Of a DNA stretch of 9,120 nucleotides, positions 1,523-9,045 are shown piece after piece. Each line of letters opens with the position of its first letter. Within the stretch, counting starts at the first letter, position 1. The DNA lies in the NCBI RefSeq assembly GCF_003334815.1, contig NZ_QOWO01000063.1; one strand, 5' to 3'. The stretch comes from Escherichia coli. GTDB taxonomy: Bacteria; Pseudomonadota; Gammaproteobacteria; Enterobacterales; Enterobacteriaceae. A program made the position numbers and the translations under genes. Below the pieces are notes generated by a model. It searched no databases. It saw only the letters and a program-made list of their open reading frames with translations, and had not been told where the DNA came from.

Positions 1523-1855
1523 CTACGATTGCACCCGCAGCCCTTCTACGCTTTCTGATGGTAGATTTATCACTGTTTTAATGCTGGCCTCTATGTTGCC
1601 AATGATGTCTTCGCGCGGGCCGCTGCGCCAGTCATCGCTTGCGTAAAAAGCGTCGAGAACCGTAGTCATGCTTTTAGGGCTGACAAAGGCGCGAATCAGG
1701 TAATAGCAGTCCGGGTCATGCAGAGAGTTACCAAACGAAACAACATCGATCCCGTGGCGTTGGTGTAGGGGAACACTGATTTCCTGCATAATGGCGTGAA
1801 AAGCGGCACCGCTGCCTTTGCGTAAGGTGTATTGCAGTATCTCGACGGTTCTCAA
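1523..1855 (-). CDS. Small dimeric alpha/beta-barrel protein, NIPSNAP/ABM-like (hypothetical)
   Basis: 110-codon ORF; the N-terminus MRTVEILQYTLRKGSGAAFH resembles the beta1 motif of NIPSNAP/stress-responsive alpha-beta barrel proteins. TTG start at 1855 with a GGAG 8 nt upstream on the minus strand; an out-of-frame ATG (1860..1858) is followed by a stop after two codons. Confidence 0.5.
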   Translation of the reverse strand: MRTVEILQYTLRKGSGAAFHAIMQEISVPLHQRHGIDVVSFGNSLHDPDCYYLIRAFVSPKSMTTVLDAFYASDDWRSGPREDIIGNIEASIKTVINLPSESVEGLRVQS

Positions 1856-2828
1856 AGCATTATCTCCGCGTCGCCTCTGGACGGCTCCCTTGTTGATAGC
1901 AATAAAGTAAACCGGACTGGGCCATGAAGCTACTGCTAATCAGACAGTCATCCGTAAGCAAAAGCTGCGATATGCGGTTCAAACGCGCTGTAAGGCTCTC
2001 TGGCGAGTGTTTTAAAGAAGGTAGTCGAAATCATGGTGCAGAATTCGCGGCGCTCTCATAGAGTGACTGGCGAAGCCAGTTGAAACAAGCGTAGCGGAGT
2101 TCGAGCAATCAATGAGAAATCTGGGCGAGCTTTAAGCTTTACCGCGCTTCTTAACTTTTGAGTCTGTTTGGCTCTATAAGGATAAGCCTGCCGCCGTGGA
2201 AATTTTCGGACGCTATGCCTGAGAGGGGCGCTTCCAAACCTAGGGCATCCACTTTTTCGCTCCCAACTTATCTGGCTGCATTTACACCGCGAACACGTTG
2301 AACGTTAGCAGCTTCTGGTTCGTATTTGGTTGTTACGCAGGAGAGGTAAAAACGGCAGGTTTACTTTTGACGGCAACGCCATAAGACACCAAACAGCAGA
2401 GAAGTGTAATTGTTAAAAATGTTAAAACATAACTTGTTCTTTAAGATGTAAACCCTTCCTCGGGGGGGAAGCCGGACATATCAACCATAAGGCCATCTGA
2501 GAAGATAGCCTGTAGGTTGCTCGGTTCCCCTTGCCAGATGAAGATCAAGTCTTCCTCGTGGTGTGACGACCTTTCTTGAAAGATGCATTATGCGCAAAAG
2601 AAGCTACTCAAGAATCCGCCGATAGCTACTTTCACCCTCTGCTTGGCTGCATCAAACGCTTGCGCGCCCTACCTACCACAATCAACGTTACGCAGAGTTC
2701 CCATCCTGACGTCTTCCGCTAAACAGCGGTGATCTCCACCTACCCGGACCGGTTTACCGCATGAGGTAGGTGTCAGGAGAGAAGCTAGCACACCATCATT
2801 TTAAAGAAAAGTCATATATATCATATGG

Positions 2829-2851
2829 CTGCGTTCATATTCTGAACGCAG
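2829..2851. repeat. Perfect 9-bp inverted repeat (CTGCGTTCA-N5-TGAACGCAG) just downstream of the DUF1643-like gene
   Basis: Read directly: 2829..2837 is the reverse complement of 2843..2851. No adjacent T-tract on either strand, so it is more likely a protein-binding site or RNA hairpin than a classical terminator. Confidence 0.5.
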
Positions 2852-2860
2852 TTATCGATG

Positions 2861-3327
2861 TTAACCTAAAGGTATGAGAACACTGTCGTTTTTCATATAC
2901 AAAGGGTGCTTCGGCTCACCTGTAGCGTTTAAGACGAAGCACATTGTGCTCTCTGGCAATAGCTGTCGGACGGTCGTTGAGCGTTTGAGGTGTCTTCCTT
3001 CATTTCCCCATGCGGCGACAACCAGTCCGGCACCGCTAACAAGACGTATCAAGTGGCTATCGTTATCTTTGCCAATGGGATCAGACGCTTTCATCATTTC
3101 ATGTCGCTGGGTGTGAACGAATGCGAACAGGTTGGCCATGTATACGCCACCGTAGCCCCAGCTTTTGGCAAACGATATGCAGCGGCTCAAGGTGCGATCA
3201 TCCTTCTCAGCATCGGCGTATGAAGGGTTTAGCCCTATGAAAAGGGCATATGGTTTTGATTCGTCCCAGACTCGTGATAACGAGTAGCGATATTGACCGC
3301 ACGGTGAAAAATCGCGTCTTTAATCAT
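2861..3327 (-). pseudogene. DUF1643-family gene interrupted by a frameshift in a homopolymer run (or N-terminally truncated product from TTG 3190)
   Basis: The 2861..3190 ORF translation contains SRCISFAKSWGYGGVYMANLFAF ... VAAWG ... GEPKHPLY, matching the DUF1643 pattern as I remember it. The same frame continues upstream (KPYALFIGLNPSYADAEKDDRTL, also family-typical) to a stop at 3320..3322 with no start codon. An ATG with an AAGGA SD 8 nt upstream sits at 3327..3325 in another frame and terminates after 30 codons. The two frames meet at the A5 run at 3307..3311; adding one base there gives a continuous ORF of about 155 codons. Confidence 0.5.
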
Positions 3328-3398
3328 TTCGGTTGTCCTTATGAAGTGATGGTTTCAGCCTAACATGTCTTTATCCGTTTTAAGCGCCAACAAACGAC

Positions 3399-3499
3399 CG
3401 TTTTCTGGCACCTCCCAATCGCACGCTTTCACACTGTTGGAAAAATAGCCTTGGCTTTTCTGGCAGGCCATCCTAATGTTGGCCTCGTTTTCTGGCAGG
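3399..3499 (+). promoter_or_regulatory. Three direct repeats of TTTTCTGGCA upstream of the serine recombinase (candidate res-like or operator region)
   Basis: Core TTTTCTGGCA at 3401..3410, 3456..3465 and 3488..3497 (flanks cgTTTTCTGGCAcc, gcTTTTCTGGCAgg, cgTTTTCTGGCAgg). A small inverted repeat AGGCCA-N9-TGGCCT lies between copies 2 and 3. The last copy ends about 22 bp before the recombinase ATG. Confidence 0.4.
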
Positions 3500-3519
3500 G
3501 GTCAGATGGGGAGATAACA

Positions 3520-4080
3520 ATGGCAACTTTTGGCTACGGACGTGTTTCGACATCGCAGCAGGATACTGAGAACCAACGGCTGGAGCTTGGGCAGGCTGGG
3601 TGGCAAATTGATTACTGGTTTGCCGATGTTGTTAGCGGGAAGGTTCCGGCAATGCAACGTAAAGCATTTTCTGAAATGCTCAATAAAATCCGCGATGGTG
3701 AAACGTTGGTGGTAGCGAAGCTTGATCGTCTGGGGCGTGATGCGATTGACGTCTTGCAAACGGTAAGGGCGCTGGCTGACCGTAATATCAAGGTTCTTGT
3801 CCACCAGCTTGGTAACACAGATCTCACTTCTGCCGCTGGGAAGTTGCTATTATCTATGCTCGCCGCGGTTGCGGAGATGGAGCGTGATCTGCTGATTGAG
3901 CGCACTCAGGCGGGACTATCACGAGCAAAAGCCGAAGGTAAGAAATTGGGCAGACCTCCTAAAATCGCGTCAGAAGCCCGTAGAGAGATTTTAGAGAAAA
4001 AGAATAGCGGTTTGAGTATCAGTGCGTTAGCGCGTCAATATGGCGTTTCAAGAGCGACTGTAGCAGCTATTACCGATTGA
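3520..4080 (+). CDS. Serine recombinase (resolvase/invertase family)
   Basis: Translation from ATG 3520 (GGGGAGA SD about 6 nt upstream) begins MATFGYGRVSTSQQD with the catalytic Ser motif, then LVVAKLDRLGRD and a C-terminal HTH (GLSISALARQYGVSRATV) after a GRPPK linker. This is the classic small serine recombinase architecture. The ORF-track start at 3451 is an upstream in-frame extension without an RBS. Confidence 0.9.
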   Translation: MATFGYGRVSTSQQDTENQRLELGQAGWQIDYWFADVVSGKVPAMQRKAFSEMLNKIRDGETLVVAKLDRLGRDAIDVLQTVRALADRNIKVLVHQLGNTDLTSAAGKLLLSMLAAVAEMERDLLIERTQAGLSRAKAEGKKLGRPPKIASEARREILEKKNSGLSISALARQYGVSRATVAAITD

Positions 4081-4093
4081 ATATGGAGAGTTT

Positions 4094-4939
4094 ATGGCTT
4101 ACACAGCAACTGTTATCCCTGTAATGATTGCTTCTCCTGGTGATGTCGCTGAAGAGAGACAAGTCATTCGTGAAATGATCCATGAGTGGAATGATATAAA
4201 TTCAGCTCGTTCAAAAGTAATGTTGACACCAATTGGATGGGAAACTCATACATCACCCGAATTAGGAGTTAGGCCTCAGGAGTTGATTAATCAAAGATTA
4301 TTAGTAGATTGTGATTTATTAATCGGTGTGTTTTGGACTCGTCTAGGCTCACCGACTGGGAACGAGGCCAGCGGAACAGTCGAAGAAATCCACCGTCATT
4401 TGAATGCGGGAAAACCGGCAATGATTTACTTTTCCTCAAAGCCTGTTGCCCCTGAAAGCCTTGATAGAGAACAATATGAGTCTCTTAAATTGTTCAAAAC
4501 TGAGTGCATGCAAAAGGGATTGATAGAGTCTTTTAATGACTTATCTGATTTCAAAGAAAAAGTCCGTAGGCAACTTTCGATAATTATTTCTAGTAGCCCT
4601 TATTTGTCTTCTCTTATATCTACCATTAACAATTCTCCTGATGCGAATACAAGTCAATCTTTGCCAGAAAGTAATTTGTCCGCCGATGCACTCAGTTTGC
4701 TGAAATTAGCATGTGTCGATGATAGCGGAACAATTTATGTGATAAGGCATTTAGGTGGCACGGATATTCAAGCGGGAAATCAATCCTTTGGTGGAAGTTC
4801 GGCTAGAGAGGTAGCCCGTTGGGAGGGCGCACTTAACGAACTGTTATCCTTTGATTTTGTGATTGAAAGAGGGGCAAAAGGACAAATGTATTATGTTACT
4901 CATAAAGGCTGGACATTTCTTGAATCTTTAAATGAATAA
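4094..4939 (+). CDS. Hypothetical two-domain cargo protein; N-terminal domain resembles a DUF4062/TIR-like Rossmann-type domain, C-terminal domain unknown
   Basis: ATG 4094 with GGAGAG SD; starts 13 bp after the recombinase stop. The N-terminal segment VMIASPGDVAEERQVI ... LVDCDLLIGVFWTRLGSPTG ... GTVEEIHRHLNAGKPAMIYF fits the strand-helix pattern and conserved acidic/ER and CD motifs I associate with DUF4062-type domains (from memory, unverified). The gene is visibly more AT-rich than the recombinase. Confidence 0.55.
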   Translation: MAYTATVIPVMIASPGDVAEERQVIREMIHEWNDINSARSKVMLTPIGWETHTSPELGVRPQELINQRLLVDCDLLIGVFWTRLGSPTGNEASGTVEEIHRHLNAGKPAMIYFSSKPVAPESLDREQYESLKLFKTECMQKGLIESFNDLSDFKEKVRRQLSIIISSSPYLSSLISTINNSPDANTSQSLPESNLSADALSLLKLACVDDSGTIYVIRHLGGTDIQAGNQSFGGSSAREVARWEGALNELLSFDFVIERGAKGQMYYVTHKGWTFLESLNE

Positions 4940-4999
4940 TTAAATGCGAGGTCATTACATAAGTTTATTTTTGATGTTAGGGTGAATTCCCTCACATTT

Positions 5000-5494
5000 T
5001 TATTCGAAAGAGGCCGCAATGACTTCTCCTGTTTTTGCGTTGAAAACACAAAAGTATTGAAGCGGAGCTAGCATCCCCAAGCTGTTAACTACCTTAGCTT
5101 GTTGCCCAAATGCCTGAATAATCTTCGCGTTCTCATCGTGCCAGAGATAAGTATTAAATACAGGCGCTTCGCTTTCTTGCCACACATGGCGAAACTTCGC
5201 TTTCTCATCCATTACCTTTTTGCACTCCCTGACCGGGTTATGGTGCGTTTTCGCATAGCATTCCGGGTTGTCATCTGCACATACGATATCTTTTCGTGCT
5301 GTCTGATGCTCAGCACCTACAGCAGAAAAGGCGCATACGCCCAGCACCAATGAGAGAGTGCCCAGAGCACCCCATACAGTTGCGCGTAGCGTGCTGATGT
5401 GCTGCTTTGATACAGCATGGGCAACTACACTATAACTGGCCCAGCTAATCGCGGCTCCCGCTGCAATCGGTAATAAAAAGTCTGCTCCCGTCAT
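5000..5494 (-). CDS. Small membrane protein, two predicted TM helices plus a Cys-containing C-terminal domain (hypothetical)
   Basis: ATG at 5494 with GAGGG SD 5 nt upstream on the minus strand. Hydrophobic segments ADFLLPIAAGAAISWASYSVVAHAV and ATVWGALGTLSLVLGVCAFSAVGA are followed by a soluble domain with several Cys. The ORF-track start at 5551 is an extension without an RBS. Confidence 0.6.
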   Translation of the reverse strand: MTGADFLLPIAAGAAISWASYSVVAHAVSKQHISTLRATVWGALGTLSLVLGVCAFSAVGAEHQTARKDIVCADDNPECYAKTHHNPVRECKKVMDEKAKFRHVWQESEAPVFNTYLWHDENAKIIQAFGQQAKVVNSLGMLAPLQYFCVFNAKTGEVIAASFE

Positions 5495-5554
5495 GATTCC
5501 CTCACTTTCCAAACCACATCGCGCCTGATAGCGAACGCTGGTGACGCCCAACCG

Positions 5555-5568
5555 ATGATGATCATCAT
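5555..5568. promoter_or_regulatory. Perfect 14-bp palindrome ATGATGATCATCAT in the divergent intergenic region (candidate operator)
   Basis: Read directly; self-complementary across the 5561/5562 centre. It sits about 60 bp upstream of the membrane-protein start and about 165 bp upstream of the XRE regulator start. Confidence 0.4.
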
Positions 5569-5734
5569 ACTTGTTGGGTTTTAAATGTCACCATTGGTGT
5601 TTGTTTTGAATCAAAAAGGATTGTCATGATACAGCCGATGAATGCTAGTGACTAAGCTCGCTGAAGTGAGATTGGATTCAAAATATCTCATATGGAGCGT
5701 GGCCTTACAGTGGTCAAAATTGCACATTCAGTGC

Positions 5735-6199
5735 ATGAAAAAATCCCTGAGAATACAGTTTGGCGAGCGGGTAAAAGAACTGCGCATTGCCACCGGATTG
5801 AGCCAAGAGGCCTTTGCCGATCGGTGCGGGTTTGCACGTAGTTATATGAGCAGAATTGAACGTGGTGGCTCTAATGCGTCTCTGGATGCGATTGAGGTGC
5901 TGGCTAACGCTCTGAGCGTTGAGCCGTGGCAGTTGTTAGCGCCTGGCCCATCTGAAGATAACGACTCGGAACTGTTGGTTCCATACGCAGCCGATGGTTC
6001 CTGTTTTCACCCCGGTTTGGCGAGCACCCGTGATGGTTCGTTTGGCGTAGGTGATAAAGCGGCTCAGAAGCGTTTTGGCACGTTTGCTGAAGCTCTTGAG
6101 TATCTTCGTAGCATGGAGACAGCAAAATGGCGTAGGCCTAATCCTAGCGGCAACTGGGGTATCGTATCAGCGGTTCGGTGGGACAAACTGAGAAAGTAG
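5735..6199 (+). CDS. XRE-family (Cro/cI-type) helix-turn-helix transcriptional regulator with an uncharacterised C-terminal domain
   Basis: MKKSLRIQFGERVKELRIATGLSQEAFADRCGFARSYMSRIERGGSNASLDAIEVLANALSVEPWQLL is a textbook XRE HTH. The start was chosen at ATG 5735 because the HTH then sits at the N-terminus; no good SD at either 5735 or the ORF-track start 5642, so the start is uncertain. Confidence 0.75.
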   Translation: MKKSLRIQFGERVKELRIATGLSQEAFADRCGFARSYMSRIERGGSNASLDAIEVLANALSVEPWQLLAPGPSEDNDSELLVPYAADGSCFHPGLASTRDGSFGVGDKAAQKRFGTFAEALEYLRSMETAKWRRPNPSGNWGIVSAVRWDKLRK

Positions 6200-6678
6200 C
6201 TCAAGTGTAAGTTTATGAATTTTTATGCTGTATGGATGAACAGTATTCATTAGATGCTGATAGTCTTATGTTTCATCAGCCCTTTGTTTCTATAAGAGTG
6301 AATAAAACAGCAAAATGCGGGTGCGTTACGGTGGCGTTTCGCTTTGGCTCTTAATGGCTTAATTCATATAAATAACATTGAGTTAAATAGTTATTCTGAA
6401 CAAGGTCTGCCGGGGTCTAACTGGTTTCAAAATCCGAACGCAGTGGCGTTTATTCAACGTCCACATAGCTGACAAATGTTCTTTCCTCCCGACTCGGCAG
6501 ACCTCCAGAAACATTAAAAGGCAGGTATGGCACGTTGATGTTTTATGCCGCCACGAACACTCGGTTTGATTCCGTCCAGCGGATCAAACTTAATATGTAG
6601 CCCCTAGAACAAAAAGGTCCTACGATTGCTCTCTTAACAGCTAACAGGAACGTGATTACAGCAGGTTATAGAGACTTA

Positions 6679-6703
6679 GGTTCGAGTCCGGCCTTCGGTA
6701 CCA
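6679..6703 (+). repeat. tRNA-Leu 3'-end-like sequence (T-loop, acceptor 3' strand and CCA): candidate att direct repeat / island junction
   Basis: GGTTCGAGTCCGGCCTTCGGTACCA matches the 3' end of enterobacterial tRNA-Leu(CAA) (leuX type, recalled as ...CCGGTTCGAGTCCGGCCTTCGGCACCA) with one mismatch. The upstream sequence cannot form the rest of a cloverleaf (the T-stem 5' strand is TTAGG, not GCCGG), so this is a 3' fragment, not a gene. Confidence 0.55.
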
Positions 6704-7236
6704 AGTTACTAAATTCCTTACAATACAGTTAGTTAGACGATTAAATCTGTCTCTTTTGCCTGTAAGAAATGCTCTGTTATGTCCCTTGAAAAAGCCGCTG
6801 TGGTTGATAGTGGTAATTGGGATGTTAACTCATAGCGGCGTGTCGTTCCAAGCGTCAAACACGTACTGACTCAACTTGAAAGCTATGACGTAGCCACCGT
6901 CTCTAAACAATCCCAAAACTTTTAGTGCAGCGCATTTTAGCCCGATGCCCCCATTCTGTCGCCGTCGCGAGACGCCGCAGGGGATAAACAGGTTTATGGT
7001 GGTCACGGTACTTGCAGACCATATGCAAGCTCTGCCAGCGGTTCGGCCTCGCTCCCCTTGGGTACATGGTCATCCTGATAAGCCTCACTAACTGACATAA
7101 CCCTGATGAAGTCGCAAGAGGCTCCGCTTGTTGTCTTACCACCAACGGGGCTTTATGGATTCTATTGCTTAATATATGATTGTATCAAACTTAGACTGCA
7201 TAATTTAAACGAACATAACAATCAGGCAGGGGAAGA

Positions 7237-8061
7237 ATGATAAAGCCATTTTCTGTGAGGTATGGTCATGTTGACGTTAGAGAGCATGTCCAGCTGAATG
7301 ATCTTAATTCTGATACACGCATGGCATTGTGGAATTGCTTATATCTTTTCCTTTGGACTAACAATCGTCAAACTGCTACAGCAACAAAATGTGCGCAGTC
7401 TGTGTGGATATATTATCTAAATCAACCTGCGGATAATATTCCTCGTTATGAAAGTGGATACAAAAGTGATAAGACGTTGCTGACTGCTATCCGAGATTAT
7501 ATATATGGGGAAGCATGGTATTTGGTATATGATTTAATTGAGTTCATCATTGAGAGAACTAATTCATATATTAATCTATCGAAGCATCTCAATTCCATCT
7601 TTAAAAAGCATGGCGTTGGTTATACCATAATAAATGGTTGTATTACTCCTATTTCAAATGATAACGAAATTGAAAGTGTTCAGAACGCAGTTGATAATGG
7701 CACTGATTCATCGCGTAGCCATTTCGAAAGGGCGTTACAACTAATGACGGATAGAGAGCAGCCAGACTACAGAAACTCGATTAAAGAGTCTATCTCTGCA
7801 ATTGAATCTTTATGCAGGAAAATCACGGGCAATGATAAAGGAACCTTGGGGGCTTGTCTTAAAGCTATAGAGGAAAAAGGATATATACACTCTGCAATGA
7901 AAGGCGCTTTTAGTCAGCTCTATGGTTATACAAGTGATCAGGGTGGAATACGTCATGCGCTAACAGAAGAAGATGTAAATCCTACCTTAGCTGAAGCTAA
8001 ATTTATGTTAGTCACTTGCAGTGCGTTCAGTAATTATCTGTTGTCAAAAATAAGTGATTAA
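7237..8061 (+). CDS. AbiJ-like abortive-infection protein (AbiJ N-terminal-type domain plus C-terminal HEPN-like domain), putative
   Basis: ATG 7237 with GGGGAAG SD. The N-terminus FSVRYGHVDVREHVQLNDL ... RMALWNCLY fits the FS-x-R-x-G ... LWN pattern I associate with AbiJ N-terminal domains. The C-terminal part has PDYRNSIKESISAIESL ... GYTSDQGGIRHALTEED ... AKFMLVTCSAF, typical of the linked HEPN-type domain. Family assignment is from memory, not a search. The gene is strongly AT-rich. Confidence 0.5.
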   Translation: MIKPFSVRYGHVDVREHVQLNDLNSDTRMALWNCLYLFLWTNNRQTATATKCAQSVWIYYLNQPADNIPRYESGYKSDKTLLTAIRDYIYGEAWYLVYDLIEFIIERTNSYINLSKHLNSIFKKHGVGYTIINGCITPISNDNEIESVQNAVDNGTDSSRSHFERALQLMTDREQPDYRNSIKESISAIESLCRKITGNDKGTLGACLKAIEEKGYIHSAMKGAFSQLYGYTSDQGGIRHALTEEDVNPTLAEAKFMLVTCSAFSNYLLSKISD

Positions 8062-8079
8062 TTACAGGTTTATAGTTAC

Positions 8080-8114
8080 GAGTGGGTTAGTTACCCACTC
8101 CCTTTAAAATTATT
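8080..8114. terminator. Candidate bidirectional terminator between convergent genes
   Basis: Perfect 8-bp stem GAGTGGGT / ACCCACTC (8080..8087 and 8093..8100, 5-nt loop) followed by CCTTTAAAATTATT; lies between the stop of 7237..8061 and the stop of the 8110..8682 minus-strand gene. Confidence 0.4.
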
Positions 8115-8682
8115 CACCAGACTCTAATCTTTTTTCTCTTTTCTCATCTCTCCTTTTTATTGCCAAATCGTGTTGCTCTTGCAGATACGTGCGTTCTTCG
8201 TTTCTATCGCTTGAAGTATATACGTCTGCTTTTACTTTTTTAGCTCCTTGTGCAATAGGTTTCCAATCCTCTCTTATACCTTTAATTTGTTCTGCAATTT
8301 GCGTCAATGGGCTTCTCGCTCCTAGATAACTTATTCCTTCAAATGTCGCCATGTCATACACATATTCATTTGTTTCTCTATCGTTTGATTTAGGTTTGCT
8401 TGCCCAGCTTATATTAATATTATAAATTTGATCTTTGATTTGTTCATACTTACAGAGATTGCTGGTAAGTGATTGCCCATTTTTTAACACGCTTACCTTA
8501 CTAAACGGAATCTCACTTTTTTCTCTATGCTCCGCATTTACTAGTGGAGGATCAAACACAACCTCAACATTATAGGCAGGTGCGTTCCCTGTATTAGCAA
8601 TGTTAATATCAAAGTAAAAAGCGGCCCAAGGGTTTGGCTCAAGTGTTACAACTATATGGGGTTGAGCTGATGCGTCAACCAT
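8110..8682 (-). CDS. Hypothetical protein (AT-rich cargo gene, no recognisable family)
   Basis: Start assigned to ATG 8682..8680 (MVDASAQPHIVVTLEP...). The ORF-track extension to 8736 would run into the IS terminal repeat and is therefore unlikely to be native. The C-terminal tail is Lys/Arg/Glu-rich. Confidence 0.5.
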   Translation of the reverse strand: MVDASAQPHIVVTLEPNPWAAFYFDINIANTGNAPAYNVEVVFDPPLVNAEHREKSEIPFSKVSVLKNGQSLTSNLCKYEQIKDQIYNINISWASKPKSNDRETNEYVYDMATFEGISYLGARSPLTQIAEQIKGIREDWKPIAQGAKKVKADVYTSSDRNEERTYLQEQHDLAIKRRDEKREKRLESGE

Positions 8683-8710
8683 TCTTTTTGTCTCGTCTGC
8701 TCTGAAGTGG

Positions 8711-9045
8711 TGAAGTGGTTTACTGAATTTGGCCACCTGAACAGAGGTGATATGCTCACCTCAGAACAACACAGGTGCTCCAATGAAAAAAAGAAATTTT
8801 AGCGCAGAGTTTAAACGCGAATCCGCTCAACTGGTTGTTGACCAGACATACACGGTGGCAGATGCCGCCAAAGCTATGGATGTTGGCCTTTCCACAATGA
8901 CAAGATGGGTCAAACAACTGCGTGATGAGCGTCAGGGCAAAACACCAAAAGCCTCTCCGATAACACCAGAACAAATCGAAATACGTAAGCTGAGGAAAAA
9001 GCTACAACGCATTGAAATGGAGAATGAAATATTAAAAAAGGCTAC
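8711..9045 (+). mobile_element. IS3-family insertion sequence (IS911-like), left end with terminal inverted repeat and orfA; truncated/interrupted at 9045
   Basis: The terminus TGAAGTGGTTTACTGAATTTGGCCACC begins with the TGAAGTGG...GGCCACC pattern I recall for IS911 ends, and the downstream sequence encodes an IS911-type OrfA. An extra TGAAGTGG copy sits immediately upstream at 8703..8710. Confidence 0.75.
8783..9045 (+). CDS. IS3-family (IS911-like) transposase OrfA (HTH/leucine-zipper N-terminal protein), 3' end disrupted by insertion
   Basis: Translation [88 protein letters not shown] is near-identical to IS911 OrfA as I remember it. After codon T (9044..9046) the reading frame continues into unrelated sequence. 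Confidence 0.8.

Follow-up and report, generated by a model that had tools for sequence, protein, structure and literature searches.

A predicted Tn3-like res site with three subsites in front of a small serine recombinase gene in the leuX island of Escherichia coli

The three identical copies of TTTTCTGGCA that stand directly in front of a small serine recombinase gene in a tRNA island of Escherichia coli are, according to our analysis of the sequence, very probably (we would put it at about 85%) the recombinase-proximal half-sites of a Tn3-like res site with three subsites, which would belong to the adjacent serine recombinase. Taken as a whole, the predicted array looks like a functional three-subsite res of a small serine resolvase, and this kind of site is already well known. 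Its distinctive features are a site I of 26 bp with an asymmetric AC centre and a site III that is partly arranged as a direct repeat. In the literature on DUF1643, on leuX in connection with a resolvase and on small serine recombinases in islands we found no description of the present res site. Below, the window means the whole stretch of 9,120 nucleotides that was analysed, and all positions are those of the window unless a locus is named.

Organisation of the predicted res site

On the + strand of the window TTTTCTGGCA occurs exactly three times, at 3401-3410, 3456-3465 and 3488-3497, with spacings of 55 and 32 bp; in their 12-mer form the copies read CGTTTTCTGGCA at 3399 and at 3486, and GCTTTTCTGGCA at 3454. 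It is the sole 10-mer of the window with three occurrences inside 100 bp, and none of 1000 dinucleotide-preserving shuffles gave any such 10-mer triple, so the triple repeat that was noticed in an earlier, sequence-only reading of this DNA is real. The copies are not simple direct repeats, as they were called there, but the right arms of dyad subsites, whose degenerate inverted partner arms (3385-3396, 3435-3444 and, weakly, 3466-3475) had been missed. The predicted crossover point, A3397-C3398, falls 3 nt upstream of copy 1 and just outside the interval of 3399-3499 that had been assigned to the feature. The repeats sit in a gap of 192 bp between the DUF1643 pseudogene and the ATG of the recombinase (Table 1).

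Table 1. Positions in the window of the predicted res site, its subsites and the neighbouring features
Feature	Position	Strand	Description or basis
Complete predicted res site, 113 bp	3385-3497	+	three subsites at conserved positions in 62-69 homologous loci
Predicted site I (crossover), 26 bp	3385-3410	+	CGCCAACAAACG-AC-CGTTTTCTGGCA, 12-2-12 dyad, 9/12 symmetric; left arm 3385-3396, central AC 3397-3398, right arm 3399-3410 including copy 1
Predicted site II (accessory), 31 bp	3435-3465	+	TGTTGGAAAA-N11-TTTTCTGGCA, arms 7/10 symmetric; left arm TGTTGGAAAA 3435-3444, 11-bp centre, right arm 3456-3465 (copy 2)
Predicted site III (accessory), 32 bp	3466-3497	+	GGCCATCCTA ... TGTTGGCC ... CGTTTTCTGGCA; weak inverted arm GGCCATCCTA 3466-3475, internal direct half-site-like TGTTGGCC 3477-3484, strong right arm CGTTTTCTGGCA 3486-3497 (copy 3)
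Putative recombinase promoter	3451-3479	+	-35 TTGGCT 3451-3456, 17-bp spacer, -10 TAATGT 3474-3479
Shine-Dalgarno GGGGAGA	3508-3514	+	upstream of ATG 3520
Small serine recombinase, 186 aa	3520-4080	+	Resolvase catalytic domain and HTH_7
DUF1643 gene, divergent from the recombinase, frameshifted pseudogene	2861-3327	-	annotated in RefSeq for the identical locus of Nissle 1917
Right-hand variable cargo slot, here a DUF4062 protein	4094-4939	+	partial match, PADLOC candidate PDC-S60
attR of the island	6679-6704	+	26-bp repeat of the tRNA-Leu (leuX) 3' end

When the window was scored with a half-site matrix, site I came out as its best dyad, with 35.3 against 6.6 for the next best, and no second res or site I-like dyad was found in the window in either orientation. 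The earlier statement that an inverted partner site is missing, which argues against a simple invertible switch, is in agreement with this result. The centres of sites I and II, at 3397.5 and 3450, are 52.5 bp apart, that is, about 5 helical turns.

In Tn3-like systems res takes about 120 bp upstream of the resolvase gene and consists of three dyad subsites made of 12-bp half-sites, sites I and II are separated by about 5 helical turns, and cleavage takes place at the central 2 bp of site I (PMC12217951). The present array of about 113 bp resembles that of Tn3 and gamma-delta in its place directly upstream of a resolvase gene and beside a divergent gene, in its three subsites, in half-sites which are TG-outer and A-rich-inner, and in a predicted crossover at the central dinucleotide. 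It differs from them in the size of the subsites (26, 31-32 and about 32 bp, against 28, 34 and 25 bp in Tn3/gamma-delta), in the asymmetry of the AC centre and in a site III that is weakly dyadic. The setting is also different from that of the Tn3 family, as the module here is placed in a tRNA-integrated island, between the tRNA-specific tyrosine integrase and attR, and the RefSeq annotations of the loci examined contain no Tn3-family transposase near the module.

Two other known systems share part of this design. The res of Sin has only two subsites and a site for an architectural protein, unlike the present array, in which sites I and III are separated by a site II of dyadic form. Sin is also a weaker relative of our recombinase (E 1.9e-14). 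What recalls the Sin/beta type is the direct half-site 13 bp upstream of copy 3 in site III, and the half-sites of Sin site II are indeed in direct repeat (PMC9943657). The Res/res system of SGI1, with boxes of 28, 30 and 25 bp, removes multimers of that island (Veress et al. 2025, PMC12217951), and judged by its published description it has in common with the present case a three-box, Tn3-like res and a small serine resolvase on an integrative island. SGI1 differs in being integrated at trmE and mobilised by IncC plasmids, as well as in the box sizes; by this analogy, it is the best functional analogue of the predicted module.

The recombinase and its relatives

Pfam found in the recombinase both the catalytic domain (PF00239, Resolvase, residues 4-142 at 1.4e-36) and the C-terminal HTH (PF02796, HTH_7, residues 144-181 at 2.2e-5) that define small serine recombinases. 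Its best solved relative is gamma-delta resolvase, which is aligned over the full length with an E value of 1.4e-25, and the stretches VSTSQQ (residues 9-14 of the query, with the same numbering in the resolvase) and KLDRLGRD are identical in the two proteins; we take these stretches to hold the Ser10 nucleophile and the catalytic arginines of gamma-delta resolvase. As this alignment begins at residue 1, the start codon is ATG 3520 and not TTG 3451 of the mechanical ORF, and copy 3, with which the res ends at 3497, therefore ends 22 nt before the start codon.

A comparison of homologous loci had been named as a check in the sequence-only reading, and it turned out in favour of the repeats, which are conserved and keep a fixed spacing in 62 distinct loci. 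A scan with one genome per species gave 80 loci with relatives of the recombinase at 60-100% identity, hosted by Enterobacterales, Pseudomonas, Oxalobacteraceae, Methylococcales, Desulfobulbales and others, and almost all of them have the same tripartite layout and the same distance to the start codon. Spacing and concordance were counted over 62 distinct res sequences and dyad profiles were calculated over 69 non-identical regions. Copies 1 and 2 are 54-57 bp apart in all 62 loci (55 or 56 bp in 59), copies 1 and 3 are separated by 85-87 bp in the 62 loci, and copies 2 and 3 by 30-32 bp. In the 69 regions the dyad symmetry of site I peaks at a total length of 26 bp with a mean of 7.6/10 against a background of about 2.5, and that of site II peaks at 31-32 bp. 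For site III the same regions give a weak dyad at 31 bp (4.3/10) and, 13 bp upstream from copy 3, the signal of a direct repeat (4.9/8 against about 2); the site is only weakly dyadic in Enterobacterales, and its inverted arm stands out clearly in loci of the TGAACA and CAACA groups.

The outer hexamer of the half-sites changes between groups of bacteria, being CTGGCA in Enterobacterales, CTAACA in Duganella and relatives, TGAACA in many Massilia and CCAACA or TCAACA in others. It is concordant across the three copies in 43 of the 62 loci, against a shuffle mean of 14.7 and a maximum of 24, a contrast that is inflated by the relatedness of the loci. Each class of half-site goes with its own motif in the recognition helix of the protein (VSRATI-A, VSRAN-LG, ISRAS-MR and VSRATVLS), and the sole protein conserved beside the repeats in all loci is the recombinase. 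From this fixed geometry, the concerted change of half-sites, their co-variation with the helix and the conserved neighbour we infer that the recombinase is the protein predicted to bind the array and that the array would be its res site.

It may be added that where one genome carries two modules, as in Duganella fentianensis FT93W (CTAACA in locus L066 and CCAACA in L072) and in Herbaspirillum sp. SJZ107 (TGAACA in L067 and CCAACA in L085), these belong to different half-site and helix classes. Such a difference within one genome fits a selection for orthogonal specificities by which recombination between copies is avoided. The four half-site classes are apparently orthogonal resolvase/res pairs and could serve as tools.

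Natural junctions at site I and alternative readings

Natural variants of the locus point to the place of the crossover. In E. coli DG343-1 (L005, 5451-6025) a NUDIX-hydrolase gene is found between DUF1643 and res, and the 549-bp segment that carries it is inserted after A3397, exactly at the centre of site I. The filled site occurs in 10 E. coli genomes, and the empty one, with the flanks adjacent, in about 700. On the DUF1643 side the sequence of the filled locus follows the window through ...GCGCCAACAAACGA, which ends with A3397, and then diverges, so that an orphan left arm remains; on the res side a new left arm, TGCCAATAAACG, is followed by AC-CGTTTTCTGGCA. The other junction of the NUDIX insert, AGATGACTAGTG, is a poor half-site.

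The second kind of evidence comes from loci that share one arm. Left arms with DUF1643 that are 96-100% identical over 500 bp are joined to right arms (res and recombinase) with an identity of 73-89%; for instance, the left arms of L019 and L024 are identical to 100% and their right arms to 81%, and the corresponding values are 99% and 74% for the window and L007, and 99% and 86% for L008 and L017. Along the comparison of the window with L007 the identity is 99-100% over 2600-3397; the drop sets in within the right arm of site I, where it is 85%, and the values are 29% for the spacer between sites I and II and 73-81% for the gene. Since several types of right arm stand on one left arm at one and the same junction, an exchange at site I has apparently taken place repeatedly. 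Identical left and divergent right arms at site I are a signature of res-mediated exchange in transposons of the Tn3 family (Tn21-type), and the difference from these hybrids is that the exchanged arms here are halves of a defence island and not modules for transposition and cargo. Among 24 close loci the left half-site is abutted by at least 12 unrelated left flanks, each with its own variant of the half-site, and DUF1643 is the commonest of them. Sharp boundaries of homology would by themselves be weak evidence, because those of the right cargo slot (~4060-5000) are also sharp and are merely gene ends. Taken together, the junctions support a predicted strand exchange at the central AC of site I. 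A res-like site had been the first of the possibilities raised in the sequence-only reading, and it is this one, with the recombinase's own crossover site as a part of it, that is supported by the Tn3-like geometry, the co-variation with the helix and the breakpoints at the centre of site I.

Two further breakpoints were considered as candidates and rejected. The deletion that ends at 3453 in E. coli AHB10 (L004) is not a recombinase junction but an adjacent deletion by an IS3-family element, the left end of which (TGAAGTGGTTTACTG) is met near position 8711 of the window and at 6195-6215 of L004. About 5.26 kb (~3454-8710) are missing there, and with them copies 2 and 3 and the recombinase, so that of the array only site I and the left-hand portion of site II are kept. 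In E. coli RL465 (L089, 3113-4914) the match that starts between sites II and III is explained by an insertion of IS100 at ~3471; placed between copies 2 and 3, it should inactivate the res and leave the recombinase gene intact.

The array may also have a part in regulation. The spacer of the putative recombinase promoter is mostly the right arm of site II; a promoter scanner called no consensus promoter in the window and the hexamers match in 7 of 12 positions, and at the homologous position of L058 and L061 there is a 10/12 sigma-70 match, TTGACT-18-TAGAAT, whose -35 element falls into the middle of site II and whose -10 element falls into site III. Copy 3 sits between the putative -10 element and the Shine-Dalgarno sequence and thus covers the likely transcription start, so the earlier suggestion that the last copy overlaps the promoter and RBS region stands for the first of these and not for the RBS. 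With a promoter inside sites II and III, their occupancy would occlude it, as in Tn3 and SGI1, and the occupied sites would probably also repress the recombinase gene. Genes of resolvases are classically autoregulated through res, as known for Tn3 and gamma-delta. All this, including the strong promoter at the same position in homologues, could also be brought forward for repeats that serve as operators only, be it in autoregulation of the recombinase or for another regulator, without any role in recombination. We consider this improbable, because the NUDIX filled and empty sites and the switches in arm identity map to the centre of site I, because site I, about 75 bp upstream of the putative -10 element, is too far away for a simple operator, and because a synaptic complex calls for three subsites in a geometry that is kept to the base pair, as it is here. 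The operator idea of the sequence-only reading is, however, compatible with a res, given the position of the putative promoter, and has to be seen as an addition to it rather than as its rival. Least likely of all, and for us practically negligible, is another binder of the repeats, be it sigma-54, a replication protein with iterons, an HTH protein of the island or DUF1643 itself. Indeed, TGGCA is like the -24 element of sigma-54 and the repeats lie between divergent genes, but none of the copies is accompanied by a GC -12 element at the proper distance, and TGGCA becomes TAACA or GAACA in homologues with the loss of GG; there is no rep gene for iterons, most of the homologous loci lack the HTH protein and DUF1643 and yet keep the repeats, and the half-sites co-vary with the recombinase's own helix. 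The readings as sigma-54 sites, iterons or hairpins were rejected since the relevant bases are not conserved in homologues.

Two of the alternatives concern the kind of recombination. That site I is a crossover site of a DNA invertase of the Hin/Gin type, which would control an invertible segment, could be thought of in view of its 12-2-12 format of 26 bp with an asymmetric centre, the format of hix and gix sites, and of the matches of the protein, for which the Mpi invertase model is the best in NCBIfam (at 98 against 272 bits it is far below the cutoff) and Gin is among the top PDB matches. It is very unlikely, as no second site was found in the window in either orientation, the adjoining accessory subsites II and III are the hallmark of resolvases, and no orientation variants were seen among hundreds of E. 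coli loci. Somewhat more, yet still not much, can be said for site I being in addition an entry point of cargo, where circles with one good half-site would be inserted at the central dinucleotide in a manner like that of integrons or of attP x attB, and by which the variable region with defence genes on the left of res would be built up. The NUDIX segment lies exactly at the centre, with a good left arm of its own and a poor other junction; the left flanks, at least 12 and unrelated, bring each its own variant of the left arm; and several loci share genes on the integrase side while the res-proximal genes differ. Against it, there is one orphan half-site only (L005, 5451-5462) in the 24 close loci and none convincing in 70 more, the right cargo slot is equally variable without any site, wild-type resolvases normally need full res partners (PMC12217951), and the NUDIX case could also have arisen in a tandem array, through a deletion that joined site I to a pseudo-site. 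No cassette arrays were found in the 94 loci, and other matches to the half-site lie inside genes or are at the chance level. Capture of an integron-like kind is thus not supported as a general mechanism.

Possible role in the island and its defence genes

The leuX tRNA island of E. coli Nissle 1917, like that of many other strains, has the same sequence as the window. On the left, tRNA-Leu (leuX) and the tyrosine integrase of the island lie at and beyond the end of the window, and in L007 a second integrase follows immediately after attR. The part from DUF1643 to the recombinase (3250-4100) was found in 724 of 5426 complete E. coli genomes, in 392 of them at an identity of at least 99% and in about 330 at 80-90%, and the res-recombinase module is carried by plasmids of the IncHI1B type as well. 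DUF1643 is frameshifted in this strain and in many other E. coli, and is intact in O157:H7 and on plasmids.

The cargo on both sides of the res-recombinase module is variable and consists largely of known or candidate genes of anti-phage defence, such as the PDC-S06 AAA ATPase, DRT9, SIR2 with a pAgo-associated nuclease, a helicase-nuclease and DUF4062 with its PDC-S60 match; defence cargo was seen in L006, L010, L020, L025 and L091. The right slot holds in other loci an HNH endonuclease, DRT9 or SIR2 with a pAgo-associated REase, or is empty. In the thrW island of UTI89 there is a pair of an AAA ATPase and a UvrD helicase, which by its composition is like GajA/GajB of Gabija. The AbiJ-NTD4/PDC-S32 gene of the window (7237-8061) lies beyond attR, in a second element.

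For the predicted res we propose a course of events that follows from the class of the enzyme. Dimers of the recombinase would bind site I as a 12-2-12 dyad, site II as a dyad of 31 bp and site III over 32 bp; two res copies in direct repeat on one molecule would then synapse via the accessory sites, and strands would be cut and exchanged at the central AC (3397-3398) of site I. There is one res only in the window, so the pair of substrates must arise transiently, and tandem islands at the tRNA gene, multimers of the excised island and plasmid dimers would be candidate sources of it. If two related islands in tandem were resolved, the left arm of the first would become joined to the right arm of the second, and fused arms of this type are the pattern of left and right identity that is seen. 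It is therefore conceivable, although we put this forward tentatively and would rather not bet on it, that the res may act as an engine of cargo turnover in tRNA-integrated defence islands of this family, with site I swapping the arms of related tandem islands at leuX or thrW and occasionally capturing foreign DNA with a single half-site.

According to a review of 2025, leuX is the most occupied of 41 defence islands of E. coli, with mobility credited to the tRNA integrase only (PMC12707154), and in a preprint of the same year small serine recombinases are reported as markers of defence systems in bacteria at large, for a reason that is left open there (PMC12632615). The likeness between the RADS of that preprint and the present locus, drawn from gene context, is a small serine recombinase with defence genes on both sides; the differences are that the bait was EF_B0058 of Enterococcus and that no recombination sites were described. 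If the cargo-turnover reading is true, it would give a concrete mechanism for this so far unexplained linkage of small serine recombinases to defence genes, and our analysis suggests that arm exchange mediated by res may be one of the mechanisms behind it. What is added here is a predicted site mapped to the base pair, a specificity that diversifies together with the protein, and natural junctions that separate the arms with defence genes, by which the question of recombinases and defence becomes accessible to experiment.

A few observations concern other parts of these loci. Two shared boundaries were considered and put aside, namely the left boundary of the variable region at position 2256, which is an effect of the BLAST threshold inside a conserved, diverging element, and the break at 2948 shared by L015 and L022, which is ordinary mosaicism. 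A "phage" record, MT836560, with a recombinase identical at 73%, proved to be a chromosomal fragment with an 8.7-kb island between tRNA-like repeats of 23 bp, and is for this reason no evidence of packaging. Contigs labelled as Collinsella sp., Martelella alba, Bacillota bacterium and Chryseobacterium sp. (L009, L012, L021 and L024) carry the module with a protein identity of 84-100% to the E. coli copy and a res of the Enterobacterales type, and are probably mis-binned or contaminant rather than representing real hosts.

The stretch of about 1 kb between the NIPSNAP gene and the DUF1643 pseudogene (1856-2860) is free of ORFs of at least 50 aa on both strands and has no internal repeats except for two short inverted pairs, and a part of it, ~1980-2332, is conserved at 77-92% in islands of several genera. 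Rfam gave no match in the window, nor in 1800-3550 at E values up to 1. This stretch could be an origin, an oriT, a non-coding RNA or a decayed gene.

A variant of the island without the integrase is represented by L003 (3705-6011), the type of E. coli MLI121, in 87 genomes. The counterpart of the sequence after attR (6679-7168 of the window) directly follows tRNA-Leu there, and a different left arm of 2 kb, for which no native context was found in E. coli genomes, meets site I of the res there, and the left half-site at this junction, TGTCATCAATCG, is unusual. Possibly this variant goes back to a circle that arose between site I and a pseudo-site further downstream and was re-integrated via the internal att site.
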